A stretch of 64,000 bases of DNA from Chitinophaga pinensis (lineage in GTDB: Bacteria; Bacteroidota; Bacteroidia; Chitinophagales; CAIOSU01). The notes under the pieces are model-generated. The model searched no databases and was not told where the DNA came from. It saw nothing but the letters and a program-made list of their open reading frames with translations. Location of the stretch: positions 103,247 through 167,246 of the forward strand of contig CAMDKI010000004.1 in the NCBI GenBank assembly GCA_945901065.1, given 5' to 3'. Shown here in pieces: positions 7,204 through 46,808 of the stretch (within the stretch, counting starts at the first letter, position 1; every line of letters starts with the position of its first letter). Both the position numbers and the translations under genes were made by a program.

Positions 7204-7405
7204 AGTATCAAGTAGTGAGTATCAAGTATCAAGTATTTTACGATTTACGAGGTACGATTTACGATTGAAAGGCAAATTGAAATAAAAATTAACTACAATA
7301 GTCCCTCCTCACCCAAGGCGAGACAAGCTGTAAATCGTACTTCGTACTCAATTTTAGCGAAAGACATGATGTACTTGATACTTGATACTCACTACTTGCT
7401 ACTAA
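7204..7405. repeat. ~200-bp imperfect long inverted repeat built from heptamer arrays
   Basis: Left arm 7204..7266 is nine in-phase 7-mers (AGTATCA AGTAGTG AGTATCA AGTATCA AGTATTT TACGATT TACGAGG TACGATT TACGATT). Right arm 7330..7350 (GTAAATC GTACTTC GTACTCA) plus 7371..7405 (GTACTTG ATACTTG ATACTCA CTACTTG CTACTAA). Positions 7204..7235 and 7372..7403 are reverse complements with 1 mismatch in 32 nt. The centre carries a degenerate CTCACCCAAGGCGAGACAAGC element. Confidence 0.85.
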
Positions 7406-7464
7406 TCTAGCACAAAGCCCTCTTCATCTAAATAAGTTGGTCAATTGCCCAATTAGCTATATTC

Positions 7465-8166
7465 TTGCTTCGTTCAATAATCAAACCGTTTACCGTGGCA
7501 CAACCAATAATCCGGATTAACAACTTAAATAAGTCCTACCAAATGGGGCACAATAGCTTGCATGTGCTGAAGGGTGTAAATATGCAGGTTAACGAGGGTG
7601 AGATGGTATCCATCATGGGTTCGTCGGGCTCGGGCAAATCAACGCTATTGAACATATTGGGCATATTGGACCAATACGACTCTGGTGAATACTATTTGGG
7701 CGAGTATTTGGTTAAGAACTTATCGCAAGCCAAAGCGGCCAAATACCGCAGCATGCTGGTGGGGTTTGTTTTCCAATCGTTTAACTTGTTGAGTTTTAAA
7801 ACGGCTGCCGAAAACGTTGCCTTGCCGCTATACTACCAAAATGTAAGCCGTAAGCAACGCGACAAAATGGCGTTGGAATATTTGGAGAAAGTAGGCCTGC
7901 GCAATTGGGCCAACCATCTGCCTACAGAAATGAGCGGTGGCCAGCAACAGCGCGTAGCTATTGCCCGAGCCTTGATTAGCAATCCGAAAGTGATATTGGC
8001 CGATGAGCCAACAGGTGCATTGGATACCCAGACCAGCTACGAGGTAATGGAGCTTTTTAAAGCCTTACACCAAGAAGGGAAAACCATCGTAATTGTTACC
8101 CACGAAAACGACATAGCCGCCCTTACCGAAAGGGTTATCAGGCTCAAGGATGGGCAGATTGTTTAA
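7465..8166 (+). CDS. ABC transporter ATP-binding protein (LolD/MacB-type ATPase), no adjacent permease
   Basis: Walker [10 protein letters not shown], signature [15 protein letters not shown]-like ([15 protein letters not shown]), Walker [13 protein letters not shown]-loop VTHE. There is no in-frame ATG near the 5' end; the start is TTG 7465 (track) or GTG 7495. Confidence 0.9.
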
Positions 8167-8167
8167 A

Positions 8168-8283
8168 GTCCACGGTCAACGGACCACTGTCCACAGTTAA
8201 CAGAAAGTATTTTGTCCATACTTAATAAGACATTGCCTTAAAGCTTAATTTTTGCTGTGGACTGTCGACAGTTGACTGTGGAC
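8168..8283. repeat. inverted pair of GTCCACA-type heptamer arrays
   Basis: 8168..8202 reads GTCCACG GTCAACG GACCACT GTCCACA GTTAACA. 8255..8283 reads CTGTGGA CTGTCGA CAGTTGA CTGTGGA CC, roughly its reverse complement (about 24 of 29 by eye). The left array starts 2 nt after the ABC gene's TAA (8164..8166). Confidence 0.8.
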
Positions 8284-8423
8284 CATAAAAAAGAACGAGT
8301 GTTAGTAAGGGTTTGAGTGGTTCTAGTTATCAGTAGGGTTAATTTGGGGGTAAACAAATTATTAATTTTCAGCTACTTGGCTTAAATTTAGGAGCCCAAT
8401 TAATAACCAACCTGCTACCCCCA

Positions 8424-11400
8424 ATGCGAAATTACCTGCTCTTACTTTCACTCGCTACTTTGTGTTTCCTTACAGGATTGTTTTATGCTCAGGGTTTGTC
8501 ATTGCCTATAGTCTCAGATAAACAAACCGAAACGGACAATAAGGATAGGGCCGCCGTAAATAACGTTTACGAAAGCAATGAGACAGACCCTATGCTGCCA
8601 GTGCATGATACTATGGCTGGGGTTACTTGGTCGGCGAATATGGCACCTCAGTATTTTGTGGAGAATTTAGGGCAATTTAATGACCGGTACGAGGGTGCTG
8701 GCAGCGATATACGATTTGCCATTGATGGTGGCGGCACCCAAATTTTTTTTAAGCCAAATGGGGTAGATTATTTTTTTGTAGAGCGAGTTAAAAACCCTGA
8801 CAGAAAAAAGGGAGATATGACAAAACCAAAAAAGGTAAGTAACAGCGACCTTTTTGGTTTTGTGTGGCAAGGTGCAAACCCAGCTGCCGAAATAGTAGGC
8901 AAAGACTTGGGGATGGCATACTACACTTATGCTATGCCAAAGAGACAAAATCCTATCAATCCTACTTTTGATAATGTAAGGGGTTTTGGTAAAATAACTT
9001 ACGAAGGGATATATGAAGGTATTGATGTAGAGTATACCATGCATCCTGAGGGTGGCATGAAGTACTCGTTGGTAGTGAAGCCAGGTGCTGATATTAGCCA
9101 AGTTAAAATGGCTTATCCTGCCGACCGGATGCTAAAGATTGATGAGTCGGGCAAGTTGCTGATAAGTACTTTGTATGGCGATATTGTAGAGCATGCACCA
9201 GTTACTTTTTACAATGGCAGCACCAAAGAACTAATAGCTTCAAAGTTTGTATTGCAAGGCAATGTAGTTTCGTTTGAATTGGAAGATTATGACCATTCTA
9301 GAGGCATCGTTATCGACCCTTGGGTACAAAGCCCTACTTTAACTAGCTCGAATTGTATTTGGGAGTGCGAGAGGGATGCTGCGGGTAACGTTTATGTTAT
9401 TGGTGGCGATGCCCCTATGAAGTTACTGAAATACAATGCTACGGGTACTTTGCTATGGACTTACGTTACGCCTTGGGACGCAACCCCTTCTGCTCCTGGC
9501 GAATCGGATGGTGATTGGCTGGGTAGCTTAGCAACCGATAGAAACGGCAACAGCTATATTACTCGGGGTTCTCTGGCAGCTATCCAAAAAATTAACACGG
9601 CGGGTGCTTTACAATGGAGTGTTGCTGGAACGTTGTTTAGCTCTGATGAGTATTGGACCATAGCCTTCAATTGCGACCAAACGAAGTTGGTTGTGGGTGG
9701 TACGCAGGGTGTTGGGCTCAATATTAAAGGGGCTCTTTTTGATATTAATGCCAGTAATGGTGCTATCATAAGCTATGTAATTGTTGGCACCAACAGGCCA
9801 TCTATTTTGCCGGGTGTGTTTAACGATGCTATGGAGGTTCGCTCCATTAGTTCCTCTCGCAACGGGCGGTATTTTTTTATGACTCTTGACTCGGTAGGTT
9901 CTGTAAATCAGAACTTTAGCGTTTGCAACAATCAGCCGTTATTTAACGAAAGCCACGGATATAAGCTTGGTTACAAATCAGAAGAGTATCGCCCCAGCAC
10001 TGGCAACGGTCCTAATTGTGCCATTAAGGCCAACGACAAATTTGTATACACCCATGGGGGCAATATTGTGCACAAAAGAGATTTAAACACAGGTGTTATT
10101 TTGGCTTCTGCAGCCATACCCGGCGGTATAAGCACCGTGCAATTTGGTTTTAGCCAACCAGGCAACAATGGCATTGATATTGATACTTGTGGGAACGTGT
10201 ATGTAGGCTCTGCGGATAGGGTTATAAAATATGATGCCAATTTGAACGTAATTTCTTCGGTAAATTTGCCGTTTCGTGCATTTGACGTGGCGGTTACCAC
10301 GGGCGGCGAAATTATTGTTTGTGGTGGAACGGGCACCTCATCAAGCACTACCCGCACGGGCTATGTGCAAGTATTAAACATGAATGCTTGCCCACAGTTT
10401 ACGCTAATTTGCTGCGATGCTACTATCTGCCCTGCTGGCCCAATTTGCGACATTGCCCCACCAATTACGCTCAACGCAGTAACCCCTGGTGGGGTGTGGA
10501 GTGGCCCGGGCATTACCAATACCACCACTGGCCAGTTCACCCCATCTGCAGCAGGCCCTGGAGTGCATCGCATTATATACACCCTTCCTTGCGGTCTTGA
10601 TTCAACTTTTATAACCGTTAATGCTTGCGCCAACCTAACGGTTTGTGTGCAGCCCAACGGAGACTACACCGTTTCAAATGGCACTGGTCCATACACTTGG
10701 CAGCGTGGAACACCATTTCAAAATTGCACAGGTTGCCCGCTAGGCAACTGTATTCCATTTATTTGTGCCGGTTTTGCTGACACCACTTGGACCACTTTTT
10801 CTACTAATACCACCGTTACGCCGCCGGGTACTTTTCCTATAAGAGTTACCGATGCAGCAGGCAACCGATTACGCATAACCAGTGCAGCCGGTATACCGCC
10901 CTGCACCACCTGCCCCAACATTACTACCACTATTACCAGCCAAACCAATATATCTTGCTCCCAGCCTACTGGCAGCGCCACGGTAAGCGCCAATGGCGGC
11001 ACAGCACCATACACTTACAATTGGCAGCCGGGCAACTTGAACGGTGCTGGGCAAACGGGCCTTGGGGCGGGTGCATACACCGTAATAGCTACCGATGCGG
11101 CAAGTTGTAAGGATACGCTAATAGTTACCATAACCAGTAGTGGCTCTATACCGAGTGTAACAGTTGCCACCACGCCTACTACTTGTGCCTTGGCCAATGG
11201 CTCAGCTACCGCAAACGTTACGGGTGGAACAGCACCATTTACCTATGCTTGGAGCCCCGGCGGTGGAAGCACCCAAACCATAACCAACCGAGCTTCGGGT
11301 ACATATACCGTTACGGTTACTGGTGTGGGTGGTTGCACGGCAACCGCACAGGGTACTATTGCCACATCTAGCGGCTTTACTACTGCGGTTACTACTACGC

Positions 11401-14240
11401 CATCAACTTGTACTGCTAATAATGGCACGGCTACGGCTATTAATACTGGTGGTACTAGTCCGTTTACCTATAGTTGGTCTCCGAGTGGTGGTAGTGCGGC
11501 TACCGCCAACAACTTGGCCCCAGGCCCATACACAGTGCAGGTAAACGATGGGAATGGATGCACAGCAACGGCTTCGGGCACAGTTACACAATCATCGGGT
11601 ACTTTGGCATTGAGCCTTACCAACCCCGTGAACCCTACTTGTGCTGGCAATAATGGCAGTATTACAGCTGGGTTGAGCGGCGGCACCGCGCCTTACACCG
11701 TAACCATTGATACAGGCGGCACCCCAATTGTGGTAAATGTGCCTTTTGCCATTAGCCAAACCATAAGCAACCTACCAGATGGCACCGTGAATGTTACGGT
11801 GGTTGATGCTCAAGGTTGCCAAGTGAGCAATTCGGCAACGTTGGCAGCACCTAACTGTTGCACGTTTACTGTATCAGCAGCACTTACGCAACCTACTTGT
11901 GGGCAAAGCAACGGTAGTATAGTGCTTACCGCTGCCAACGGCTCGGGTAACTACACCTACGCTTGGGCCAATGGCTCGGGCGCAGGCACCACAGCGAGCG
12001 GCATTGGTGCTGGCACTTATAGCGTAACCATTACCGATAATGGATTTGCGAACTGCTTTAAGGATACCACCTTTACCTTAAACTCAAACAGTAACTTAAG
12101 CCTTAGCCTTACCAACCCAGTAAACCCTACTTGTGCAGGGAATGACGGTAGCATAACTGCAACGCTCAGTGGCGGCACGGCCCCTTACACTGTAACTATT
12201 GACACCGGCGGTGCACCAATTGTGGTGAATGTGCCATTTGCCATTAGCCAAACCATAACCAACCTACCGGATGGCACAGTCAACGTAAGTGTGGTGGATG
12301 CGCAAGGTTGCCAAGCGAGCAATTCTGCCACGTTGGTTGCGCCAAACTGTTGCACGTTTACAGTATCGGCTGCACTTACCCAACCTACTTGTGCGCAGAG
12401 CAATGGTAGTATTGTTATTACACCGGCTAATGGTTCGGGCAACTACACTTATGTTTGGGCTAATGGTTCGGGTACCGGTAACACTGCCAATAACATTGGT
12501 GCGGGTGTTTACAATGTTACCATTACCGACAATGGCGTGGCCAACTGCTTTATTGATACTACATTTACCCTTACTTCAAACAGTTCATTGGCAATAAGCC
12601 TTACCAATCCTGTGAACCCAACTTGTGCGGGCAATGATGGTAGCTTAACTGTTGGGCTAAGTGGAGGCACTGCACCATACACCGTAACTATTGACACCGG
12701 AGGTACGCCATTTGTAATTAATGTACCTGTTGCTATATCGCAAACCCTTACCAACTTACCTGCAGGTACAGTGAACGTAACAGTAGCTGATGCTCAAGGT
12801 TGCCAAGCAAATAATACCGTAACATTAACTGCTCCAGCCAATTGCTGCTCTTTTAATATTTTGGCTGCTATTACCCAGCCAGCATGCGGGTTGAGTGATG
12901 GTAGCATAGTTATTACTCCGGCAAACGGCTCAGGGAACTATACTTACACTTGGGCCAATGGCTCAGGAACAGGCACAACGGCCAACAACCTAGCCGCTGG
13001 CAACTTTGCGGTAACCATTACCGACAATGGTTTTGCCAATTGCTTTATCGATACCTCATTTGCTTTAATCAATGCAAATGCACCAGCGATTGGGCTGGTC
13101 TCGCAAACCAATGTGGCATGCGCTGGAGATGCAACGGGTGCTATTACCGTCCAGGTTTCGGGTGGCACGGCGCCTTTTACAGTACTATGGAGCAATGGCG
13201 ATACCACGCTTGCCGTAAACGGTTTGGCCGATGGCGCTTATACGGTTTCGGTTACCGATGCCAATAGTTGTGCCTCAAATGCAACTTTTACCATTGCCGC
13301 GGGCACTGTGCTAGTATTGCAAACTATCATGACACCTATTGATTGCAACAACCCTAACGGCGGTAGCGCTGGTGTGGCCGTTACGGGTGGCACAGCACCA
13401 TACACCTATCTATGGAGCAATGCAGCTACTGCATCAACCCTAACGAATGTTACCGTTGGAACTTATACCGTGACTGTTACCGATGCGCAAGGGTGCGTGG
13501 CAGTTGATTCAGTTACTGTTACCGGCGACAGCATAGCTTCGTTTAGTCTTGGCCCTGATTTAACTATTTGTTTTGGCGATTCGTTAGTGTTAGGAACTGG
13601 CTTGGTTGGCACCGTATGGTCCACGGGCGATACGAGCGATTATTTGCTGGTAACTGATGCAGGGGTTTATATCGGAAGTATCTCCAATGGCAATTGCGCG
13701 AATAGTGACACCGTGAGTGTTTCAGTGGAGCAAATACCAAACGTTCCGCAATTGAATGTAAATGATACTATTGTTTGCGCAAGTGAAACCGTAATATTGC
13801 GGGTAGGCGATGAGGGTTATCTCTATGTTTGGTCAACGGGCGATACCGCGAGTCAAATTGTGGTGGATACACCAGGTATCTACATCGTTTCAGCCATAAA
13901 TGACTGTGGCGAAGTAAGCGCTGAGGCGTTGGTTACCGATGAAAACTGCGCTTGCCGCCTTTATTTGCCCAATGCTTTTTCTCCAAATGCCGATGGTGCG
14001 AACGATGTATTTAAAGCGTATAGCGTTTGTACTTACATTGAGGAATTTAACTTAACCGTCTTTGATAGATGGGGTGGGGTGGTATACAAATCGAACGACT
14101 TTATGGAGGTTTGGAACGGCACAAGTAAAGGCAAGGCATGCATACCGGGCGTATATGTTTATAGTTTGAGTTACCTTTCTCGCGAGAATGGTGTGCGCCA
14201 AATATATAGGCAGAAGGGCAGTGTTACTCTGTTGAGGTAG
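8424..14240 (+). CDS. giant cell-surface adhesin-like protein with beta-propeller (SBBP-type) repeats, SprB-type repeats and a T9SS type B (gliding-motility-associated) C-terminal sorting domain
   Basis: 1938 aa. It has a signal peptide (LLLLSLATLCFLTGLFYAQG) and SBBP-like motifs (DAAGNVYVIGG, DRNGNSYITRG, DTCGNVYVGSAD). Many ~75-aa units carry C-x-G/N-x-NGSATV-x-x-x-GGTAPYTY-x-W (SprB repeat pattern). The C-terminus YLPNAFSPNADGANDVFKAY...FDRWGGVVYKS...WNGT...GVYVYSL is the type B sorting-domain pattern. Confidence 0.9.
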   Translation: MRNYLLLLSLATLCFLTGLFYAQGLSLPIVSDKQTETDNKDRAAVNNVYESNETDPMLPVHDTMAGVTWSANMAPQYFVENLGQFNDRYEGAGSDIRFAIDGGGTQIFFKPNGVDYFFVERVKNPDRKKGDMTKPKKVSNSDLFGFVWQGANPAAEIVGKDLGMAYYTYAMPKRQNPINPTFDNVRGFGKITYEGIYEGIDVEYTMHPEGGMKYSLVVKPGADISQVKMAYPADRMLKIDESGKLLISTLYGDIVEHAPVTFYNGSTKELIASKFVLQGNVVSFELEDYDHSRGIVIDPWVQSPTLTSSNCIWECERDAAGNVYVIGGDAPMKLLKYNATGTLLWTYVTPWDATPSAPGESDGDWLGSLATDRNGNSYITRGSLAAIQKINTAGALQWSVAGTLFSSDEYWTIAFNCDQTKLVVGGTQGVGLNIKGALFDINASNGAIISYVIVGTNRPSILPGVFNDAMEVRSISSSRNGRYFFMTLDSVGSVNQNFSVCNNQPLFNESHGYKLGYKSEEYRPSTGNGPNCAIKANDKFVYTHGGNIVHKRDLNTGVILASAAIPGGISTVQFGFSQPGNNGIDIDTCGNVYVGSADRVIKYDANLNVISSVNLPFRAFDVAVTTGGEIIVCGGTGTSSSTTRTGYVQVLNMNACPQFTLICCDATICPAGPICDIAPPITLNAVTPGGVWSGPGITNTTTGQFTPSAAGPGVHRIIYTLPCGLDSTFITVNACANLTVCVQPNGDYTVSNGTGPYTWQRGTPFQNCTGCPLGNCIPFICAGFADTTWTTFSTNTTVTPPGTFPIRVTDAAGNRLRITSAAGIPPCTTCPNITTTITSQTNISCSQPTGSATVSANGGTAPYTYNWQPGNLNGAGQTGLGAGAYTVIATDAASCKDTLIVTITSSGSIPSVTVATTPTTCALANGSATANVTGGTAPFTYAWSPGGGSTQTITNRASGTYTVTVTGVGGCTATAQGTIATSSGFTTAVTTTPSTCTANNGTATAINTGGTSPFTYSWSPSGGSAATANNLAPGPYTVQVNDGNGCTATASGTVTQSSGTLALSLTNPVNPTCAGNNGSITAGLSGGTAPYTVTIDTGGTPIVVNVPFAISQTISNLPDGTVNVTVVDAQGCQVSNSATLAAPNCCTFTVSAALTQPTCGQSNGSIVLTAANGSGNYTYAWANGSGAGTTASGIGAGTYSVTITDNGFANCFKDTTFTLNSNSNLSLSLTNPVNPTCAGNDGSITATLSGGTAPYTVTIDTGGAPIVVNVPFAISQTITNLPDGTVNVSVVDAQGCQASNSATLVAPNCCTFTVSAALTQPTCAQSNGSIVITPANGSGNYTYVWANGSGTGNTANNIGAGVYNVTITDNGVANCFIDTTFTLTSNSSLAISLTNPVNPTCAGNDGSLTVGLSGGTAPYTVTIDTGGTPFVINVPVAISQTLTNLPAGTVNVTVADAQGCQANNTVTLTAPANCCSFNILAAITQPACGLSDGSIVITPANGSGNYTYTWANGSGTGTTANNLAAGNFAVTITDNGFANCFIDTSFALINANAPAIGLVSQTNVACAGDATGAITVQVSGGTAPFTVLWSNGDTTLAVNGLADGAYTVSVTDANSCASNATFTIAAGTVLVLQTIMTPIDCNNPNGGSAGVAVTGGTAPYTYLWSNAATASTLTNVTVGTYTVTVTDAQGCVAVDSVTVTGDSIASFSLGPDLTICFGDSLVLGTGLVGTVWSTGDTSDYLLVTDAGVYIGSISNGNCANSDTVSVSVEQIPNVPQLNVNDTIVCASETVILRVGDEGYLYVWSTGDTASQIVVDTPGIYIVSAINDCGEVSAEALVTDENCACRLYLPNAFSPNADGANDVFKAYSVCTYIEEFNLTVFDRWGGVVYKSNDFMEVWNGTSKGKACIPGVYVYSLSYLSRENGVRQIYRQKGSVTLLR
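11605..13080 (+). repeat. three tandem 492-nt (164-aa) near-identical repeat units inside the adhesin gene
   Basis: The LTNPVNPTCAGN(N/D)GS anchors start at nt 11617, 12109 and 12600/12601. Each unit reads LSLTNPVNPTCAGNDGSITA.LSGGTAPYTVTIDTGG.P.V.NVP.AISQT..NLP.GTVNV.V.DAQGCQ..N..TL.AP.CC.F...AA.TQP.C..S.GSIV.T.ANGSGNYTY.WANGSG.G.TA....AG...VTITDNG.ANCF.DT.F.L. Unit boundaries are arbitrary. Confidence 0.85.
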
Positions 14241-14392
14241 TTGTTAGTTAAGTACAATAAATATATAGTGTGCTTTGTGGCATAAACATTGGGCAATGTG
14301 GCAGTTCACGTGGCTATTGTTGTGCATTTACGCTACATTTTCTTATTATTGAGAGCTCATTTATTACCAGTACATAAAATCCCCAACAAGAA

Positions 14393-16192: not shown

Positions 16193-16300
16193 AGGTTATT
16201 CCATGGCCTCAACGGTAATCGTTAACCATAACTTTACATCTGGCAGCCACAATTATATAGCAATTAATGTTAAATATGCACAACAACTAAAGCCTAATTT

Positions 16301-17302: not shown

Positions 17303-17383
17303 ATAAGCCTTACCGCTTTAAATGTAAGTTCATAGTTGCTATTATGGGCTCTTATTTTGTTATTTAGCCTTCTACAGATAGTT

Positions 17384-22245: not shown

Positions 22246-22368
22246 GGTGGCGAATATTATTTATCGGTTATTAGTTATTGGTGGGTAAGAATCGTCGGTG
22301 TTCAAAAAAATATCCGAACCACAAGCAATCAACCAATAACCAGTAAAACCAATAACCTAAATTAAAAG

Positions 22369-22376
22369 TAGCTTTG
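22369..22376 (+). promoter_or_regulatory. candidate -7 promoter box (TAGCTTTG)
   Basis: Perfect TAnnTTTG match 21 nt upstream of the ATG at 22398. No clear -33 TTG. Confidence 0.35.
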
Positions 22377-23747: not shown

Positions 23748-23771
23748 GGGTTTATTATTAGTTGATTTGTT

Positions 23772-23796
23772 ATTAACTTGCCTCGCCTTGGGCGAA
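23772..23796 (-). repeat. inverted copy of the CTCGCC-CAA-GGCGAG / GCAAGCTAAT element
   Basis: The reverse complement of 23772..23806 reads CCAATCAACC TTCGCCCAAGGCGAGGCAAGTTAAT. The core differs at 1-2 positions from the groES-upstream unit. Confidence 0.75.
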
Positions 23797-23906
23797 GGTT
23801 GATTGGAAAGGCCAAAGGCCATTTTAAGCTCCTCCCCATTTTAGGGGGAGGTTGGGAGGGGGTAATGGTCGGGCGCTACATTTGCCTTTCTATTATTACC
23901 CTTGCC

Positions 23907-25861: not shown

Positions 25862-26446
25862 ATGGATTTTATCCCACAACCAACCTTTTTAGCTGCCCTT
25901 AAAGAAGTTTTGAAAACCGATGTAGCGGCCATTGCCCTTAATGTTGAGGACTTGTTTTACCTAGCCAACGACCTTTGCCCCCAAGCCCAACGCATACGCT
26001 ATGGCGCTTACCTAAGGTTTATTGATTCGTTAGATAAATACGGCGAACCAACGGTGCCACACGAGCAAGCTGATTTGTTGCTGGCTATACGCGATAGCAT
26101 TAAAGCCGAACAGGGTAAGCAGCGCATGGTTATGCTCAAAAGCATTATGCTCGGAGAGAAAGATTGGAGGCGTTTTGTGTGGCTGTTGCAATGGCAAGAA
26201 AAGCAGGAGCGCCAAAAAAACGCGGAAGCCAAGCAACAGGCCAAAGAGCAAAGGGAACGCGATGCGGCTGCTGAAACAGTAGCCAAGTTAGCCACCCCAG
26301 CGGAAGCAGAATCAGCTAAAGCTGCTTCAGCCGACATTGTACTGCCGCAAGCTATCACAAACCAGCAAACTAATGAGGTTGAGCAGCAGCAGTCAATCAG
26401 CGCTATGTACTACGCTACTAAGCAACCACTTGCCAAAGCAGGATGA
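25862..26446 (+). CDS. hypothetical protein with charged, low-complexity C-terminal half
   Basis: Track ORF 25841 (GTG)..26446; the first ATG is at 25862. It contains GEKDWRRFVWLLQWQEK followed by a QQAKEQRERDAAAE-rich tail. No family assigned. Confidence 0.5.
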   Translation: MDFIPQPTFLAALKEVLKTDVAAIALNVEDLFYLANDLCPQAQRIRYGAYLRFIDSLDKYGEPTVPHEQADLLLAIRDSIKAEQGKQRMVMLKSIMLGEKDWRRFVWLLQWQEKQERQKNAEAKQQAKEQRERDAAAETVAKLATPAEAESAKAASADIVLPQAITNQQTNEVEQQQSISAMYYATKQPLAKAG

Positions 26447-26506
26447 TGTGCCTATTTGATAATGTGCTGATGTGCTGATGTACCGATTTACCGATGAACT
26501 GATGTG
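26443..26506. repeat. eight in-phase degenerate octamers (CTGATGTG type)
   Basis: ATGATGTG CCTATTTG ATAATGTG CTGATGTG CTGATGTA CCGATTTA CCGATGAA CTGATGTG. The array begins on the TGA stop codon (26444..26446). Confidence 0.8.
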
Positions 26507-32383: not shown

Positions 32384-32401
32384 GTGGCAAAGATACTAAT
32401 A

Positions 32402-32739
32402 GCTTGCCTCGTTTCAAACGAGGGACCACAGTCCACCGTCCATGGTCGACAGAAAAAAGAATGCAAGTTGGATAGAGATTAAAAATTCAAAATTTAAAAT
32501 TCAAAATTAGGAATGAGCGTAGGTTATACCGCCGTTCAAAAACTTTTAACTTACTTTGTTTCTGTCAGTGACTAGTGAATAGTAACTAGCGACTAGATAT
32601 AAAAAAGACTCATTAAACATTTAAGCGCAGTGCTGATTTTTTTCGCTTCGAAATACACCTCCCTAACCCTCCTTCCTAGGAGGGAAGTGTTGTTGGGTAT
32701 TTTAAAGTCTTGATACTTGATACTCAATACTCAATACTG
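32402..32739. repeat. cluster of four different heptamer arrays plus two hairpin elements in one divergent intergenic region
   Basis: GCTTGCCTCGTTTCAAACGAGG hairpin (32402..32423). Four arrays: 32424..32451 (GACCACA GTCCACC GTCCATG GTCGACA), 32483..32510 (AAATTCA AAATTTA AAATTCA AAATTAG), 32566..32600 (CAGTGAC TAGTGAA TAGTAAC TAGCGAC TAGATAT) and 32709..32739 (CTTGATA CTTGATA CTCAATA CTCAATA CTG). Palindrome CCCTCCTTCCTAGGAGGGAAG around 32668..32690. Confidence 0.85.
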
Positions 32740-32744
32740 AAAAA

Positions 32745-34887: not shown

Positions 34888-35478
34888 ATGGCTATGAAAA
34901 GTATCTGTGTGTTTTGCGCCTCAAGCCTTGGGGAGCGGGAGGATTACCGGCAAGCAGCCGAAGCGGTGGGCAGTATATTAGCCCGCAACAATGTTAGATT
35001 GATATATGGCGGTGCCAAGGTGGGCCTTATGGGTGCCGTGGCCGATGCTGCGCTAAAAAGCGGCGGTAAAGTAACTGGTGTACTGCCTCATTTTTTGGCA
35101 GGCAAAGAGATAGCCCATACCAATTTGAGTGAATTAATTTTGGTAGAGAGCATGCACGAGCGTAAGCAGCAAATGTCGCAAATGGCCGATGGCTTTATTG
35201 CCTTGCCCGGCGGTTTTGGTACGTTGGAAGAACTGTTTGAAATCATTACTTGGGGCCAATTGGGCCTGCATCACAAACCAGTATTAGTGCTCAACATCAA
35301 TGGCTATTACGACCACTTGATAAAACTCCTCGACCACATGGCCGCTGAAGGTTTACTGAAAGAGCGCCACCGCCGAATGATGTTATTTACCGATAGGGTA
35401 GAAGATGCCTTAAACGAAATGCTGCACTACAGCCCGCCGGTGATTAATCCGCTCATTGATAAACACAGTAAGACATGA
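34888..35478 (+). CDS. LOG family protein (TIGR00730-type Rossmann fold; cytokinin riboside 5'-monophosphate phosphoribohydrolase-like)
   Basis: Trimmed to the ATG at 34888 (MAMKSICVFCASS…). IYGGAKVGLMGAVADAA and LPGGFGTLEELFE (PGGxGTxxE) are the family signatures. Confidence 0.88.
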   Translation: MAMKSICVFCASSLGEREDYRQAAEAVGSILARNNVRLIYGGAKVGLMGAVADAALKSGGKVTGVLPHFLAGKEIAHTNLSELILVESMHERKQQMSQMADGFIALPGGFGTLEELFEIITWGQLGLHHKPVLVLNINGYYDHLIKLLDHMAAEGLLKERHRRMMLFTDRVEDALNEMLHYSPPVINPLIDKHSKT

Positions 35479-35516
35479 AATAGGAAATGAAAAATAAGAA
35501 ACAATAAATAAGAAAC
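35475..35516. repeat. six in-phase degenerate heptamers (AAGAAAC type) starting on the stop codon
   Basis: ATGAAAT AGGAAAT GAAAAAT AAGAAAC AATAAAT AAGAAAC. The TGA stop of the LOG gene is at 35476..35478. Confidence 0.75.
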
Positions 35517-35690
35517 ACTTAGTATATAGTGCTTCCCTCCTAAAAAGGAGGGGCAGGGGTGGTGTAATTCGTCGAGTTGAACATGAGATTGCCAATAGTA
35601 ACATTGCGAGTGAATAGCATCAACTCGCAATTGTAGTACGCCAATCATAAACCAGCTTTAATTAGACAATTTCCTACCTGTAGCAAGCAA

Positions 35691-35762
35691 CACCTCCTCA
35701 TCCCTTCCTTCGACCTCGTTTAAAACGAGGCTCAGGACAGGCTCTTTTTAGGAGGGAAAATG
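35691..35762. repeat. partial copy of the 43070..43220 element (47-nt shared core with CTCGTTT-N-AAACGAG hairpin)
   Basis: 35702..35748 (CCCTTCCTTCGACCTCGTTTAAAACGAGGCTCAGGACAGGCTCTTTT) versus 43081..43127 (CCCTTCCTTCGATCTCGTTTGAAACGAGACTCAGGACAGGCTCTTTT). There are 3 differences: one in the loop and two forming a compensatory T-A to C-G stem pair. Confidence 0.85.
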
Positions 35763-36979: not shown

Positions 36980-37114
36980 ACCGCTGTTTTTTTGTTCGAA
37001 ATTAGGGATTGCGGCGCATAAAACACTTATTATTTTTGAAGTTGTGATATTCTCGCCATTGGGTGTTAATTTTATCCAGTTGCAATTGCCGAATTTTTGA
37101 AAATACAACCCCTA

Positions 37115-38383: not shown

Positions 38384-38488
38384 TTTGTGCGGTTAGCTAC
38401 CGGTTTTTATAAAGTGCGCAATATGTAAAGTTACTTTTACGTTCTAGTTAAATAGCGTAGCTTTAGATTACCAACTATCAATACTGTT

Positions 38489-38929: not shown

Positions 38930-39732
38930 TGCTTACACCATTAAAGTCTTTCTTGCTACTAGCGTTTATTGCCTCGAGTTTGCAATGTATGCCGGTATTC
39001 GGTCAAATTGTTACCGACGATATTGCGGTTCCGCCACCAAGTAATATACCTGCCAAAAAGAATCGCAACAACGACAGACCTACCAAGCAATTGTTTTTGC
39101 TGCTCAATGCCGGTTTAGCTTCTCCGCTAGGTATTTTCGGTTCTACCAATATTCTAGAGGAAGATGCTGTTTTTGCCAAAACAGGCATAAACCTCAGCCT
39201 TAATGTTGGCCGAACCTTTAACCGTTATGTGGGGCTTACTGCTACAGGCGGGCTTATAGTGCAAACCAATAAAATGGCCCAGATTGTAGACAACTACAAT
39301 CGCTATGGCCCACCTGGCTCATATATATTGGCATACGACTACCCAGGTATGCGGTTTTATTATTTGGCAGGCGGCTTGTTGGTTACAGTGCCGGCTACTA
39401 ATCGGTTTTCTATTGATGTAAAGCTGCAAGGTGGCATGGCGCTGGGTGTAGATAGGGAGCTAACGCTGCAGATTGATAACGGACTTGGCACCATAATAGA
39501 AAAGTATGGCAAAGCCAGCGACATCGCTTTTCTGCCCGATTTGGGCTTAAACTTTAGGTTGTTGGTTACCGACAACTTTACTATGAATTTCTTTACCGAT
39601 TTTGTAATGGCCAACTTCAAATTTAAGGACGTAACCTACTACGAAAACGGCGTACCACTGGCTACCTACGACTACGACCTGCCCATGCGCAACCTCAATG
39701 TAGGCATAGGAGCGGGGTGGAGTTTTAAGTAG
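38929..39732 (+). CDS. hypothetical outer-membrane beta-barrel-like protein
   Basis: 267 aa. The start ATG overlaps the upstream TAA (TAATG). It has a signal peptide (LLLAFIASSLQCMPVFGQ), alternating beta-strand pattern and a C-terminal aromatic residue (…GAGWSFK). Confidence 0.55.
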   Translation: MLTPLKSFLLLAFIASSLQCMPVFGQIVTDDIAVPPPSNIPAKKNRNNDRPTKQLFLLLNAGLASPLGIFGSTNILEEDAVFAKTGINLSLNVGRTFNRYVGLTATGGLIVQTNKMAQIVDNYNRYGPPGSYILAYDYPGMRFYYLAGGLLVTVPATNRFSIDVKLQGGMALGVDRELTLQIDNGLGTIIEKYGKASDIAFLPDLGLNFRLLVTDNFTMNFFTDFVMANFKFKDVTYYENGVPLATYDYDLPMRNLNVGIGAGWSFK

Positions 39733-39772
39733 TCCACAGTCCACAGTCCACAGTCCACAGTCCACAGTCGAT
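39731..39772. repeat. AGTCCAC heptamer x5 (+1 degenerate) starting on the stop codon
   Basis: AGTCCAC AGTCCAC AGTCCAC AGTCCAC AGTCCAC AGTCGAT. The TAG stop of the upstream gene is at 39730..39732. Confidence 0.9.
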
Positions 39773-39812
39773 GGCGAGTAGCTTATAGCATATGGTTCGT
39801 TGTACCCCAAAA

Positions 39813-39900
39813 ACCCTCGCCCAAGGCGAGGCAAGCTAATACCCCTCGCCCAAGGCGAGGCAAGCTAATAACCCTCGCCCAAGGCGAGGCAAGCTAATAA
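39813..39900 (+). repeat. three tandem 28-30-nt units ACCCTCGCCCAAGGCGAGGCAAGCTAATA, each a 7-bp stem hairpin
   Basis: Units at 39813..39840, 39841..39870 and 39871..39900. Each has the stem CCTCGCC/GGCGAGG with a CAA loop. There are no unique spacers between units. Confidence 0.9.
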
Positions 39901-39925
39901 CCAATCAACCAATCAACCAATCAAC
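39901..39925. repeat. CCAATCAA octamer x3
   Basis: CCAATCAA CCAATCAA CCAATCAA C, directly following the third 30-nt unit. Confidence 0.85.
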
Positions 39926-39972
39926 TGCCACCTTTACAGCCCGGAACTGCAATTTTGGCGCATTATGCCAGT

Positions 39973-39988
39973 TGGCACAACTAATGCT
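39973..39988 (+). promoter_or_regulatory. sigma-54-like -24/-12 motif upstream of groES (speculative)
   Basis: TGGCAC AACTA ATGCT. GG and GC have the canonical 12-nt register of TGGCAC-N5-TTGC, and the -12 element ends 42 nt before the groES ATG. A TACCTTTA (near TAnnTTTG) box also lies at about 39999..40006. Confidence 0.25.
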
Positions 39989-40029
39989 ATAGGCAAAGTA
40001 CCTTTAAAACGATAAAAACATAAAACAAT

Positions 40030-40305
40030 ATGGCTGTTAACATTAAACCCCTTGCAGACCGCGTGCTGGTGAAAGCCGACGCCGCCGAAGAAACCACCAA
40101 GAGTGGCCTATTTATACCCGATACGGCTAAAGAAAAGCCAATGCGTGGCGTAATAGTAGCCGTAGGTGCGGGCAAAAAAGACGAACCAATGACCGTGAAA
40201 GTGGGCGACAAAGTATTGTATGGCAAATATGCTGGCACTGAGTTGACCGTAGAAGGAGAGGAGTTCTTGATTATGCGCGAAAGCGACATCTTCGCCATCC
40301 TTTAA
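40030..40305 (+). CDS. groES: co-chaperone GroES
   Basis: 91 aa: [48 protein letters not shown]…, the canonical Cpn10. Confidence 0.97.
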
Positions 40306-40308
40306 TTT

Positions 40309-40343
40309 GGTTACGGGTTCCGAGTTACGGGTTGCGAGTTTGC
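40309..40343. repeat. five in-phase degenerate heptamers (GGTTACG type)
   Basis: GGTTACG GGTTCCG AGTTACG GGTTGCG AGTTTGC, starting 4 nt after the groES TAA (40303..40305). Confidence 0.8.
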
Positions 40344-40362
40344 AATAAACCAACGACCAGTA

Positions 40363-40390
40363 ACCCTCGCCCAAGGCGAGGCAAGCTAAT

Positions 40391-40392
<2 letters not shown>
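40363..40392 (+). repeat. fourth copy of the ACCCTCGCCCAAGGCGAGGCAAGCTAATAA unit (groES-groEL spacer)
   Basis: Identical to the 39871..39900 unit by eye. Confidence 0.9.
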
Positions 40393-42097
<1,705 letters not shown>

Positions 42098-42135
42098 GCT
42101 ACATCGTCCGGCTTTAAAGCCTGATAATCATTTTA

Positions 42136-42177
42136 ACGCCCCCATTTCTTTTAGTAGAGATGGGGGCGTTTTTTTTG
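42136..42177 (+). terminator. intrinsic terminator of groESL
   Basis: Stem ACGCCCCCAT (42136..42145) / ATGGGGGCGT (42160..42169), followed by a T8 run. Confidence 0.85.
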
Positions 42178-42194
42178 GGTTTGGGACCCCTGCC

Positions 42195-42285
42195 CACCCT
42201 GCCCATTCGGATTTGTAATCCGAATGTACTGAGCACCGGATTTGCAATCCGGCACATACTATGTAAACGAACCTCACACGCACAC
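42195..42285 (+). repeat. ~90-nt double GGATT-hairpin element
   Basis: GCCCATTCGGATTTGTAATCCGAATGTACTGAGCACCGGATTTGCAATCCGGCACATACTATGTAAACGAACCTC. It is collinear with a degenerate copy at 45641..45725 (GCCCATTCGGGTTTATAATTTGAGTGTAAGAGCACCTGATTTGTAATTCGGCACTTACTTCGTAAATCAACCTC). Confidence 0.85.
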
Positions 42286-42392
42286 TCCCGTTGCTTGTTG
42301 TAACTAACATTTGGCAAGGGTAGCGGCATATTCATTGGCAACAATTGATTAATTTTAGGTGTTATTCTTCGTAAAGTTTTCAATTGCTGGGT

Positions 42393-42914
42393 ATGTTTAA
42401 ATCTTTTTTGCCGCTGCTGTTTGTGGGTATCATGTTAACGGCTTTCGTGGCTCCTGTGCCAGTTACCGATAGTGTTATCGAGATTCTTCAAGGTTCTAAA
42501 AAGGTGTTTAACTTTTCTGCAGGGCTAAAGTCTGCCGAATTGGTAACAATGTTGGAGGGTAAAGGTCCGTATACTATTTTTGCGCCGCTCAATACCGCTT
42601 TTGCCAAGTTACCCGCGGGTAGCCTTGAGAACTTGTTTAAACCCGAAAACAAAACTACGCTCACCAGCCTGCTCAACTACCATATAGTGCCCTTGCAACT
42701 CACCAAAGCCGACTTGGTTGCAGGGATAAACCAAGGCAATGGAAAAATGATACTCAAAACCATGTTGGGCAAAACCTTAACGGCTACCTTGGCCGATGGC
42801 AAATTGCAATTGACCGATGCACAGGGCACTATAGCCTACATTACCTATGCCGACAAATTGGGCACCAACGGTGTGGTGCACTTTATTGATGGCGTGCTTA
42901 TGCCGGCCAAATAA
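42393..42914 (+). CDS. fasciclin domain-containing protein
   Basis: Trimmed to the ATG at 42393. After the signal peptide come YTIFAPLNTAFAKLP, LLNYHIVP and NGVVHFIDGVLMP, the FAS1 H1/YH/H2 motifs. Confidence 0.85.
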   Translation: MFKSFLPLLFVGIMLTAFVAPVPVTDSVIEILQGSKKVFNFSAGLKSAELVTMLEGKGPYTIFAPLNTAFAKLPAGSLENLFKPENKTTLTSLLNYHIVPLQLTKADLVAGINQGNGKMILKTMLGKTLTATLADGKLQLTDAQGTIAYITYADKLGTNGVVHFIDGVLMPAK

Positions 42915-42932
42915 ACATATATCTGCTTGATC

Positions 42933-42994
42933 CACGCAATCGGATTTCTAAATCCGCCCTTTCAAATTCCCAAATCCAAATACTAGATTGCGTG
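42933..42994. repeat. 9-bp inverted repeat (CACGCAATC/GATTGCGTG) enclosing a CGGATTTCTAAATCCG hairpin
   Basis: Arms at 42933..42941 and 42986..42994, with the internal hairpin at 42941..42956. Confidence 0.7.
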
Positions 42995-43069
42995 ATGTAG
43001 CATCTGGCAAATACCAGGTAAACGAACTACTTGTTAATGCTTGTAAAGAGTGTCCCCTGCCCGCACTAA

Positions 43070-43220
43070 CCACCCCCAACCCCTTCCTTCGATCTCGTTT
43101 GAAACGAGACTCAGGACAGGCTCTTTTGCATCCGCTCAAAAAGGCCATTCGAAGCCTGCCTGCGGCAGGCAGGCTTCGCCGAGCCAGTGCAGCGCTGGCA
43201 AAAGGAGGGGTTGGGGGTGG
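43070..43220. mobile_element. 151-bp MITE-like non-coding element with perfect 15-bp terminal inverted repeats
   Basis: CCACCCCCAACCCCT (43070..43084) and AGGGGTTGGGGGTGG (43206..43220) are exact reverse complements. Inside are the hairpin TCTCGTTTGAAACGAGA (43093..43109) and the 27-nt palindrome GAAGCCTGCCTGCGGCAGGCAGGCTTC (43151..43177). There is no coding capacity, and the track ORFs across it read both strands of the palindrome. Confidence 0.6.
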
Positions 43221-43233
43221 TTGCACATAATTC

Positions 43234-43270
43234 AAAAAAAAACACCCCGCTTCAATAAAGAAACGGGGTG
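43234..43270 (-). terminator. intrinsic terminator of the M43 protease gene
   Basis: The minus strand reads CACCCCG-TTTCTTTATTGAAG-CGGGGTG followed by T9 (the plus-strand A-run at 43234..43242). It lies 29 nt after the stop at 43299. Confidence 0.75.
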
Positions 43271-43298
43271 CTCGGGTATGGTTTAATGGAGGCGGGTG

Positions 43299-45260: not shown

Positions 45261-45640
45261 TGTCGGATTTTAAATTGGGTATTGGGTTATCATTAAATTA
45301 AGCGTTCGAAAGTCAAATCAAACCAATTGGTCGATTAAAAGCAAATTCAACTTGGTTATTTCATTGCGTATTTTCAAATAGTTATTACAATTAGGCAATA
45401 AATTTTATATCCGTCTGAGCATCAGTGAGGTAGCGCTATATTTTGGAGTATTTTCTGACCAGTTTTTCCTTGCAACATTTACGAAGTAATGGTGTCCAAA
45501 AATGCAATTTGAAATTAAAGCGATCGCAAACAACATCATCATTATCCTGATTGATAACAATTGAACCCGCGCGATGGTTTTTGAAATGGGCTATACTTGT
45601 AAATTTGCATTGAAGTGAGAAGTACTCAATGCTACCTACC

Positions 45641-45783
45641 CCGCCCATTCGGGTTTATAATTTGAGTGTAAGAGCACCTGATTTGTAATTCGGCACTTAC
45701 TTCGTAAATCAACCTCCTATGCATGCCTTTGCTAATCAGCGGATTGCAAATCCGCTTCTCGGTAACGACGGATTGCAAATCCG
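45641..45783. repeat. degenerate double-hairpin element plus two intact GGATTGCAAATCC hairpins
   Basis: 45641..45725 is the degenerate homolog of 42195..42285. AGCGGATTGCAAATCCGCT lies at 45738..45756 and CGGATTGCAAATCCG at 45769..45783. Confidence 0.8.
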
Positions 45784-45797
45784 CCGTGGCGAAAATT

Positions 45798-45847
45798 AGT
45801 CTTGTGTCTTGTGTCTTGCCGGCCGGCAGGCAGGTTGTGTCTTGCGT
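45798..45847. repeat. GTCTTGT-type heptamers flanking a 12-nt palindrome, abutting the fabI stop codon
   Basis: AGTCTTG TGTCTTG TGTCTTG (45798..45818), the palindrome TGCCGGCCGGCA (45816..45827), then TGTCTTG CGTC up to the fabI stop (45848..45850). Confidence 0.7.
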
Positions 45848-46654
45848 CTATTCCAACCCATCCATCAATCGCTGGCTTACGCCAGTAGTGCTAAAGCCGC
45901 CGTCGTGGTATAGATTTTGCATGGTTACCATGCGGGTAAAGTCGCTGAACATAACCACTACAAAGTTGGCGCAGTCTTCGGCGCTGGCATTGCCCAGTGG
46001 CGATATTTTGTCGGCATAGGTAAAGAAACCATCAAAGCCCTTCACGCCCGAGCCAGCCGTGGTGTGTGTTGGCGATTGGGAGATGGTATTGATGCGTACT
46101 TTTTTCTCGAAGCCGTAGTGGTAGCCGTAACTGCGGGCAATACTTTCTAGTAAGGCTTTGGCATCAGCCATATCGTTATAGCCCGGGAAGGCGCGCTGTG
46201 CTGCTATGTAAGTAAGTGCCACTACCGAGGCCCATTCGTTCAAGGCATCGTTTTTGTGGCAAACCTGCAATACTTTATGAAACGATAGTGCCGAAATGTC
46301 CAACGTTTTTTGATAAAAGTCATAGTTAAGCTCGTGGTATTCTTTGCCCTTGCGCACATTTAGCGACATGCCGATAGAGTGCAGCACAAAATCGAGCTTG
46401 CCGCCCAATATTGTTATGCTTTGGGTTACAAGGTTCTCCAAATCCTCCATACTAGTGGCATCGGCAGCTATTACTTGGCTACCGGTAAGTTCGGCCAATT
46501 CGTTTATTTTGCCAAAGCGCAGGGCCACAGGCGCATTACTCAATACAAAGGTTGCGCCTTCTTCATGGGCCTTTAGCGCCACTTTCCAGGCAATAGAGTT
46601 CTCGTCTAACGCGCCGAAAATAATACCGCGCTTTCCTTTAAGTAAGTTATGCAT
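45848..46654 (-). CDS. fabI: enoyl-[acyl-carrier-protein] reductase (NADH), FabI
   Basis: Track ORF 45848..46726 trimmed to Met25 (MHNLLKGKRGIIFGALDENSIAWKVA…), start computed from track coordinates. The removed N-terminal extension is translation of a heptamer array. It has the Y-x6-K region (YIAAQRAFPGYNDMADAKALLES) and SPLGN typical of FabI. Confidence 0.9.
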   Translation of the reverse strand: MHNLLKGKRGIIFGALDENSIAWKVALKAHEEGATFVLSNAPVALRFGKINELAELTGSQVIAADATSMEDLENLVTQSITILGGKLDFVLHSIGMSLNVRKGKEYHELNYDFYQKTLDISALSFHKVLQVCHKNDALNEWASVVALTYIAAQRAFPGYNDMADAKALLESIARSYGYHYGFEKKVRINTISQSPTHTTAGSGVKGFDGFFTYADKISPLGNASAEDCANFVVVMFSDFTRMVTMQNLYHDGGFSTTGVSQRLMDGLE

Positions 46655-46668
46655 TGGTTTGTTTTTTA

Positions 46669-46808
46669 GGTCTACGGTCCATAGTCGATGGTCCATAGCT
46701 GCTGCACTTATATCTACAAAGAACACAAAGTTTTTTCAGAATGCGAATAGCGAATCATCCAATAATTATTTATCTATCATTGGCCATCGACCATGGACCA
46801 TGGTCCAT
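46669..46808. repeat. inverted pair of GGTCCAT-type heptamer arrays bracketing the SDR-fabI junction
   Basis: About 46669..46699 reads GGTCTAC GGTCCAT AGTCGAT GGTCCAT. About 46778..46808 reads CATTGGC CATCGAC CATGGAC CATGGTC CAT (complementary word). The right array ends 3-4 nt from the SDR stop (46812..46814). Coordinates here are +/-1. Confidence 0.75.

Follow-up and report, generated by a model that had tools for sequence, protein, structure and literature searches.

Heptanucleotide minisatellites with 22-nt hairpin inserts in the intergenic gaps of an uncultured Chitinophagales bacterium

Introduction

Why do the gaps between genes of a Bacteroidota genome hold runs of degenerate 7-nt words, and do these runs serve the neighboring transcripts? 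The question is raised by 64,000 nt of contig CAMDKI010000004.1 (assembly GCA_945901065.1, positions 103,247 to 167,246, forward strand; hereafter the window, numbered from its first letter), where a first-pass annotation made from the letters alone had noted phase-locked heptamer arrays in noncoding gaps. The host is an uncultured Chitinophagales bacterium. Its GroEL matches a protein of a 722-kb ENA metagenome contig at 100% identity, and the best named GroEL relatives are "Chitinophagales bacterium" metagenome-assembled genomes (MAGs). We find that the arrays are heptamer minisatellites of the short tandemly repeated repetitive (STRR) or long simple sequence repeat (SSR) class, with inserts like the small dispersed repeats (SDRs) of Nostoc, in a new host. 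They are driven by slippage and assembled into exchangeable foldback modules, and it is probable, though well short of certain, that these modules act as nonterminating RNA stem-loops.

Materials and methods

Tandem arrays in the window were called with Tandem Repeats Finder (TRF). Our own periodicity scan relied on a crude gene map, a score of at least 10 and dinucleotide-shuffle controls, and covered 6,618 nt of intergenic and 57.5 kb of coding DNA. The association with stop codons was evaluated by random placement of the arrays within the same gaps (5000 simulations). Comparisons include L001, an independent assembly aligned over 21.6 kb, and L087, a relative 93–97% identical to the window. 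The Bacteroidota background set consists of genome contigs retrieved by GroEL search, among which there is no close relative (<=79% identity).

Results

Strong period-7 arrays lie in gaps, and several abut stop codons

TRF recovers essentially every period-7 or period-14 array first noted, with starts at 7204, 7237, 7372, 8168, 8255, 32478, 32567, 32709, 35478, 39731, 40310, 40390/40426, 45799, and 46784, and likewise the two octamer arrays, as period-8 calls at 26444 and 39899. The strict phase claimed for the arrays also holds, because indels are at 0% in nearly all of them. The shuffle control that had been proposed was run, and it yields 9 intergenic period-7 arrays compared with 0.02 in dinucleotide-shuffled sequence, and 3 of period 8 compared with 0.01 expected, while periods 3–6 and 9–13 give 0–1 each; the 57.5 kb of coding DNA contains no period-7 array at this threshold. 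The same arrays are present in independent ENA, JGI, and Logan assemblies and, as such, are not assembly artefacts. In total, about 26 arrays lie in about 17 gaps of the window. The statement that they fill most intergenic gaps was thus too strong, i.e. about 17 of the 38 gaps of at least 20 nt are occupied, amounting to ~10% of intergenic bases.

For seven array ends, the nearest stop codon is no more than 4 nt away. Random placement gives 0.57 such ends, and the observed count was reached in 0 of 5000 simulations. The first-pass count of seven stop-abutting arrays is borne out to this extent, although for one of its members, the array at 45799–45818, the distance to the stop codon (45848) is 29 nt and not 0–4 nt. 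The claim that word families recur across the window likewise stands for the GTCCACA type, for which GTCNAYRGTCNAYRGTC finds 22 matches with up to 2 mismatches (0.52 expected), all of them intergenic; families other than this one exceed chance by a modest margin.

Pooling 57 units from 12 arrays gives the GTCCACA-type logo G-T-C-N-A-Y-R (hereafter GTCNAYR), in which positions 1–3 and 5 are ~90% conserved and positions 4, 6, and 7 only 42–65%. Such uneven conservation is not what a uniform decay of slippage products would leave, and it hints at constraint. GTCNAYR is present at four window gaps, and in 4 of 5 independent cases it lies in sense orientation right after a stop codon. Arrays of the AATAACC/AACCAAT type, by comparison, stand in sense before the starts of cdd, saccharopine dehydrogenase, groES, and groEL, where they give A/C-rich, G-poor leaders, and the AATAACC family has little positional heterogeneity. 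Neither a coding model nor a sigma-70 promoter model explains the arrays, as first proposed.

About half of the arrays are arms of long hairpins

Arrays that had been listed as complements of others are true inverted repeats (7203–7235/7372–7404, 97% complementary; 8159–8207/8244–8292; 46669–46696/46779–46806), and the first-pass annotation overlooked that many arrays pair with each other as hairpin arms. Overall, about half are arms of inverted repeats that fold into long stem-loops. The nested double hairpin at 7196–7412 has a predicted dG of -78 kcal/mol (z -9.9), and lower but marked scores are found for 8160–8295 (z -4.8), 46662–46811 (z about -4.9), the groES–groEL spacer on the sense strand (z -3.5), and 22246–22373 on the minus strand (z -3.0). 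In the divergent gap at 22255–22357, both genes have sense CCAATAA-type units in their leader.

The array hairpins have no U tract, and A-rich or mixed sequence lies 3' of their stems. Canonical terminators, with a GC stem and a T run, are found at 42135–42170 after groEL and at 43273–43240 after the M43 peptidase gene, and a terminator scan of the window matches canonical sites and no array hairpins. Array hairpins also occur in tandem, divergent, and intra-operon gaps. Given the missing U tract, the separate canonical terminators, and this siting, they are not ordinary terminators, and the early dismissal of a terminator model was sound. The window has no match to Rfam models at their gathering threshold, and none in tRNA/tmRNA scans.

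Units come and go in steps of 7 nt while positions persist

The sole difference between the window and L001 over 21.6 kb is one AGTCCAC unit, with 5 versus 4 copies in the array at 39731; the same site has 9 degenerate units in L087 and 3 in the more distant relative L083. The GTCTTGT array at 45799 has 6 copies in L087, i.e. a 21-nt, three-unit indel in an otherwise near-identical gap. Unit-number polymorphism as known from long SSRs is therefore found at both levels, with a 7-nt indel relative to L001 and a 21-nt indel relative to L087. Every indel of at least 5 nt between the window and L087 affects an array or a small hairpin, and none disrupts a credible coding sequence; a doubtful 73-aa open reading frame (ORF; 42114–42335) contains four of them. 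The array region at 46669–46808 is identical in L087.

Orthologous position and word family are retained down to ~80% nucleotide identity, with differences in unit number and variants. This applies to the arrays that follow the 267-aa gene, to those of the holA/permease gap, where GTCCACA/GTCGATG and CTAGTCA arrays are still found in L083 although coding identity is down to about 80%, and to the groES–groEL spacer. In the last case, TTATTGG-type units run from the groES stop and AATAACC-type units run up to the groEL start, and the resulting hairpin is present in 5 of 5 genomes with GroEL identity of at least 91%.

Different modules occupy the same slot

In the slot after the ABC (ATP-binding cassette) ATPase stop, the window and L095 have the GTCNAYR hairpin, while L094 and L097 have an unrelated TTAGTTA/AACCAAT hairpin, the L094 copy with an F1 insert (see below); in all four the slot extends from the stop codon to one shared, conserved block, AACGAGTG. 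The gap between valS and the ABC gene shows the same pattern, with an AGTATCA/TACGATT module in the window and L094 and a GACACAA/TTGTGTC module with identical boundaries in L097, the three genomes being mutually about 88% identical in valS. Across this whole gap (window 7158–7475, L094 9694–10011), the window and L094 differ at 3 of 318 nt, compared with ~10–12% in the flanking coding sequence. Purifying selection on the valS–ABC hairpin was considered and dropped, as the mismatch map shows that the whole gap is conserved and L097 is without the tract.

Two 22-nt hairpins are inserted at a fixed heptamer phase

Some arrays are interrupted by F1, a 22-nt hairpin element (CTCGCCCAAGGCGAGGCAAGCT). 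Chance would give 0 copies in the window, which has 4 that are identical and 3 that are variants. Its size, near-identity, dispersal, and hairpin potential are those of SDRs (21–27 nt). The 29-nt repeat present three times at 39812–39902 is, by comparison with L087, a heptamer array with F1 at phase ACC^AAT in three successive units; L087 has an uninterrupted AATACCC AATAACC AATAACC at this site. The three F1 copies at 39816–39895 and one at 40365 are all missing in L087, where the heptamers are intact. Tandem amplification of one 29-nt unit is disfavored, and three separate insertions are favored because the heptamer order (..AACC, AATACCC, AATAACC, AATAACC) equals that of the empty L087 array.

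Presence or absence with exact boundaries at orthologous sites is thus observed relative to L087 for four F1 copies and for a second 22-nt element, F2, at 42930. Absence of F1 from the same sites in L087 shows that it is mobile, and, because the outgroups L083 and L084 are without F1, insertion is the derived state. The ACC^AATAACC junction recurs in further F1 copies, at 23775 (minus), on metagenome contig L090 and in L094. The F1 variant GAGACAAGCT occurs twice, each time adjoining GTAAATC-type units, and the variant at 7307–7329, with the same GTAAATCGTAC flank, is also found on metagenome contig L089. A metagenome scan for F1 returned only two short contigs.

F2 has 10 noncoding copies in the window. 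Their core, CGGATT-N3-4-AATCCG, is invariant, the outer stem pair covaries, and the tail reads ...CGCAAT. Both elements are inserted at a fixed heptamer phase without target duplication, which accounts for periodicities of 29 nt (22 + 7); four pairs of F2 copies lie at exactly this spacing.

Other small hairpins recur in the gaps, with CCCTCC...GGAGGG stems or with CTCGTTTRAAACGAG followed by CTCAGGACAGGCTC. They are located at 23830–23860, 32655–32690, 35533–35560, 35744–35758, and 43068–43222, and also at 35722–35750 and 43100–43130; L087 is without part of the 43051–43230 region.

Features and gene content of the window

The positions of arrays and inserts are listed in Table 1. For the region at 39812–39925, TRF reports period 29 with 96% matches and period 8 with 100% matches. 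At 46669–46808, one arm is 5 nt past the upstream stop, and the other immediately precedes or overlaps the start annotated for the downstream gene.

Table 1. Heptamer and octamer arrays and hairpin inserts of the window.
Feature	Position	Strand	Setting and remarks
AGTATCA-type x5 (outer left arm) and TACGATT-type x4 (inner left arm)	7204–7266	+	TRF 7204–7236, 7237–7266; nested hairpin module in divergent valS/ABC-ATPase gap; inverted repeats I2, I15
Degenerate F1 copy (CCTCACCCAAGGCGAGACAAGCT), then GTAAATC-type units	7307–7329	+	Module apex; two mismatches to F1 consensus
Right arms GTAAATC GTACTTC GTACTCA (7330–7350) and TACTTGA-type x4.5 (7372–7404)	7330–7404	+	Complement the left arms
GTCNAYR x5, 50-nt loop, complementary YRTNGAC x5	8168–8287	+	TRF; inverted repeat I1, 49 nt; begins 2 nt past ABC-ATPase stop; 3'-region stem-loop without U tract
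Inverted pair TTATYGG-type (22255–22282)/AACCAAT-type (22326–22357)	22255–22357	.	TRF; fills divergent gap
Weak TTATTAG-type array	23748–23797	-	Right at stop 23747
F1 copy in the preceding array	23775–23797	-	Inserted at CAACC^AATAACA
F2 copies (starts of GGATT core)	23912, 23941, 30361, 30443, 30472, 42209, 42238, 42942, 45741, 45770		
Octamer array, TGATGTGC type, 7.9 copies, 69% matches	26444–26506	+	TRF; starts within stop 26446; unpaired
Several arrays, holA/amino-acid-permease gap	32401–32741	.	Divergent gap
F1 variant	32401–32422	-	holA/permease gap
GTCNAYR x4	32424–32451		holA/permease gap
ATTCAAA x4.4	32478–32510		holA/permease gap
TAGTGAC-type x5	32566–32600		holA/permease gap
CTTGATA x2 and CTCAATA x2	32709–32741		holA/permease gap; ends 3 nt ahead of start codon
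A-rich AAGAAAC/AAATAAG array, period 7/14	35477–35517	+	Overlaps stop 35478; TRF period 14, 2.9 copies
(AGTCCAC)x5 perfect and one degenerate unit	39731–39772	+	TRF 100% matches; starts within TAG stop; unpaired
Three tandem 29-nt units (heptamer and 22-nt F1), then AACCAATC x3.4 octamers	39812–39925	+	
groES–groEL spacer; left arm GGTTACG-type x5; right arm AACCAGT/TAACAAA-type, about 9 units	40309–40453	+	Begins 4 nt past groES stop; right arm runs to 4 nt ahead of groEL start
F1 inserted in groES–groEL spacer	40365–40387		
F2 insert, 22 nt, hairpin-forming	42930–42951	+	Missing from L087
(GTCTTGT)x2.9	45799–45818	+	TRF; copy-number polymorphic
Inverted GGTCCAT-type arrays	46669–46808	-	Gap of two tandem short-chain dehydrogenase genes; inverted repeat I3

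The gene content of the window is ordinary, with valS, the ABC ATPase, groES/groEL, dehydrogenases, signaling genes, and an AbiE toxin–antitoxin pair, and includes SprB-like and Por_Secre_tail proteins as type IX secretion system (T9SS) cargo. Pfam annotation of essentially all window genes reveals no transposase, reverse transcriptase, evident RNA-binding candidate, or candidate repeat-handling enzyme.

The repeats have probably led to two erroneous ORF calls. On the minus strand, the 73-aa ORF at 42114–42335 is built from hairpin inserts and has indels of 34 and 46 nt compared with L087, and the longest-ORF start of the minus-strand ORF 45848–46726, at 46726, reads across the GGTCCAT array, relatives being called 10–24 codons shorter.

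Upstream of groES, a sigma-54-like -24/-12 motif (TGGCAC-N5-ATGC, 39973–39987) lies in a block that is kept in L083, L084, L086, and L087 (down to 86% GroEL identity), with the inverted repeat TGGCGCATTATGCCA immediately upstream of the motif. A 492-nt tandem repeat at 11613–13061 (2.9 copies, 75% matches), within a 1938-aa SprB-repeat/CHU_C T9SS cargo gene, represents coding domain repeats and has no relation to the heptamer arrays.

Heptamer arrays elsewhere in Bacteroidota

Across 80 other Bacteroidota groEL loci (1.39 Mb), there are 42 arrays of period 7 compared with 13, 5, and 3 for periods 8, 10, and 5, so that, multiples of 3 aside, period 7 dominates. When the threshold is relaxed slightly, at least one array is found in 39 of 83 Bacteroidota loci. 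The density in these loci is 0.05 arrays per kb, versus 0.23 per kb in the clade of the window (30 arrays in 132 kb).

A Flavobacteriales MAG (L015, CAZAON010000312, 11654–11908) is denser still, with AGGATTA x13 between the groEL stop and a canonical terminator and CGTAACC x10 beyond it; because the terminator follows the AGGATTA array, that array is in a 3' untranslated region (UTR). A Cloacibacterium locus (L019, 9895–9981) has independent inverted heptamer arrays in its groES–groEL spacer, and in Tannerella forsythia (L067, 7241–7632) an inverted pair, AATGGTT/TAACAAT, is duplicated. Heptamer words common to the whole phylum are at most weakly enriched (38 words within one mismatch vs 28.8 for shuffled words), and we attach no claim to this value, because it is easy for AT-rich 7-mers to match when any rotation and either strand is allowed.

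Relation to known repeat systems

Tandem heptamers were first recognized in bacteria around 1990, and there is still no consensus on their mechanism or function. The STRR heptamers of Nostocaceae are said to go back to Mazel in 1990, and the SDRs of Nostoc, reportedly described by Elhai and colleagues in 2008, are said to be 21–27-nt near-identical hairpin elements, present or absent at orthologous sites and lying inside heptamer arrays. No enzyme is known to go with STRR or SDR. The cyanobacterial STRR heptamers had been named at the outset as the closest analogue, and we concur, given that the window also has degenerate noncoding tandem 7-nt units with several word families per genome, dispersed over many noncoding loci of one genome. 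F1 and F2 resemble Nostoc SDRs in being tiny hairpins within heptamer units. What differs is the host, a member of the Chitinophagales and not a heterocystous cyanobacterium, and the STRR words CCCCAGT, TTGGTCA, and CAACAGT have no tandem copies in the window.

Repetitive extragenic palindromes (REPs) and the bacterial interspersed mosaic elements (BIMEs) they form are strain-variable and often found right after stops and between cistrons; they are transcribed and stabilize upstream mRNA without being true terminators. REPs are 20–40-nt palindromes with a conserved GTAG head, mobilized by RAYT transposases. The arrays share with them extragenic, post-stop, or intercistronic siting and strain variation, and differ in that their stems are built from tandem 7-nt units; no RAYT (IS200/IS605-like Y1) protein is encoded in the 64 kb or the short related loci.

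The arrays also have the features of long-SSR heptanucleotides, i.e. head-to-tail units within the 5–11-nt range, at least 3 copies, above-chance frequency, and a mainly intergenic location. Heptamers are the over-represented long-SSR class in many bacteria according to Mrazek 2007, as cited in PMC4679880 and PMC4692102. For example, Rehm et al. 2015 (PMC4692102) describe GGGAATC in Xanthomonas and GGGGAYT in Nostoc. Related Xanthomonas species have their arrays between the same genes; these arrays are highly variable in length and sequence, are in some cases inverted, and have been attributed to polymerase slippage (PMC4692102). These SSRs match the arrays in class, same-gene siting, variation, and occasional inversion, but are G-rich, quadruplex-prone, and of a single word, whereas the arrays here are AT- or C-rich, belong to many families, and are in no case G4-prone.

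A STRR-like class had been described as not expected in Bacteroidota, a view that is wrong given the period-7 dominance across the 80 groEL loci and the work of MacGregor 2015 (PMC4679880), in which intergenic heptamers, TAACTGA among them, were reported from five Bacteroidetes as well as from Beggiatoaceae and cyanobacteria. In that study, repeats lie near start codons or right after stops, different heptamers are mixed in one gap in Gramella, Aequorivita, and Elizabethkingia, Cyanothece strains differ by indels in 7-nt steps, and relatives with shorter gaps have no repeats (MacGregor 2015). Placement, mixing, and stepwise indels are all matched in the window, while the TAACTGA paper contains no systematic inverted pairing or 22-nt inserts, unlike this genome. 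TAACTGA itself has 9 single and 0 tandem copies in the window, and does not form direct repeats there. As for SDRs, a review of the Nostoc work states that, among the cyanobacteria examined, none outside Nostocaceae had an SDR-like repeat (PMC5861425).

Discussion

The kind of repeat described here is already known, also in this phylum. In the window, array length changes by whole 7-nt units, the behavior expected of slipped-strand mispairing, and about half of the arrays are complementary pairs that form foldback modules of 120–210 nt, each filling a slot delimited by a stop codon or by conserved promoter sequence. We propose that transcription of the paired arrays yields long, AU-rich stem-loops that lack a U tract and are located in 3' UTRs, in 5' leaders, and between cistrons, as in the groES–groEL spacer. 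There, they would serve as mRNA structural modules, much as REP/BIME do, i.e. as barriers to 3' exonucleases, sites of RNase III-type processing, or insulators between cistrons, and not as terminators. A/C-rich, G-poor arms next to start codons may supply the unstructured leaders that Bacteroidota translation prefers, and unpaired arrays would probably be young or neutral expansions.

Several observations weigh against this proposal. The role in RNA is one that we infer purely from sequence, and sense versus antisense folding of the groES–groEL spacers does not consistently favor RNA-level (G–U) pairing. No structure or partner is predicted for the arrays at 39731 (z +1.8), 26444 (z -0.08), 35477, and 45799. 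The groES–groEL hairpin is missing at GroEL identities of 87% or less (L086, L092, and L093, with spacers of 52–61 nt), and L096 has no array after the ABC gene. The near-identity of the valS–ABC gap in the window and L094 is more likely a recent short recombination import than a product of selection, because it reaches beyond the module and is not seen in L097. Lastly, hypervariability and wholesale replacement of modules are equally expected of neutral or selfish DNA.

That the arrays are neutral or selfish DNA is the main rival explanation, and one that we consider unlikely while taking it seriously. Slippage would act where tolerated, deletion bias would leave arrays at stops, inverted pairs would stay complementary through template switching (quasi-palindrome correction), and nothing would be selected. 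Copy-number polymorphism among near-identical genomes, rapid decay of units, the many word types, replacement of modules between lineages, compact spacers without arrays in distant relatives, and a sporadic presence in Bacteroidota, at a density about 4-fold below this clade, all fit well. By contrast, neutrality does not readily predict position-specific conservation of GTCNAYR units over independent loci and genomes, the same word family at independent slots, or a hairpin that is retained in its slot despite wholly different sequence. The excess of stop abutment also needs an extra assumption, because slippage extends arrays internally and does not move their edge to the stop.

A more far-reaching view, which we regard as doubtful, is that the arrays and the 22-nt hairpins are products of one enzymatic system common to Nostocaceae, Chitinophagales, and perhaps others. 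If true, a machine would recognize the 7-nt register and insert ~22-nt hairpins at fixed phase without target duplication, which would explain the 29-nt spacing of F1 and F2, and it would seed or homogenize heptamer arrays beside stop codons. This would be a new, very small kind of site-specific mobile DNA, possibly moving via single-stranded DNA or RNA, and not plain slippage.

Alternatively, the units could be periodic protein-binding sites on RNA or single-stranded DNA, with one core (e.g. GUC-N-A) per subunit, that exert posttranscriptional control in the manner of HutP (UAG-N4 repeats), TRAP, or cold-shock-domain proteins (~7 nt each). The core and variable spacer of the GTCNAYR logo have this form, the array TAGTGAC TAGTGAA TAGTAAC TAGCGAC (32566–32600) reads as (UAG-N4)n, and arrays stand directly before starts and after stops. 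Binding of S1, Csp, or CsrA to TAACTGA repeats has been proposed (MacGregor 2015; PMC4679880), and heptamer repeats are reported to affect recF/recO expression in Nostoc in preliminary work (Pradhan et al.). We nevertheless hold this explanation to be improbable, as at least 5 unrelated word families would call for several binders or a nonspecific one, the window encodes no candidate binder, half of the arrays would be sequestered in duplexes, and the AATAACC family has little heterogeneity among positions.

Slightly less credit still goes to paired arrays as foldback-type miniature transposable elements, with heptamer-built terminal inverted repeats and insertion at preferred sites beside stop codons. 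Their 30–50-nt terminal inverted repeats and sharp boundaries, the different modules found in one slot depending on lineage, the TA on each side of both valS-slot modules, and a module 99% identical between the window and L094 where valS is ~12% different would all suit such elements. However, about 1.7 Mb of sequence (the window and related and unrelated loci) contains no second copy of a whole module, loops are unrelated between modules, the identity tract equals the whole gap 7158–7475 and fits homologous recombination, no transposase is nearby, and no empty site was recovered among the compared loci. Unconventional transcription terminators for Bacteroidota genes are very improbable despite the seven arrays starting at stops and several strong stem-loops, since no array hairpin has a U tract on its 3' side, canonical terminators are present elsewhere in the window, hairpins lie inside the co-transcribed groES–groEL pair and in divergent promoter gaps, and the L015 array is followed by a separate canonical terminator.

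In practical terms, the arrays create spurious short ORFs (42114–42335) and shifted start calls (46726). More broadly, SDR-like micro-elements are not confined to Nostoc-type cyanobacteria, and this clade offers clean natural comparisons, i.e. single-unit indels between near-identical genomes, unrelated modules in identical slots, a hairpin conserved between the two cistrons of the essential groESL operon, and F1 caught in three successive heptamers. These comparisons represent handles for telling RNA structural elements from protein-binding tracks and from junk.

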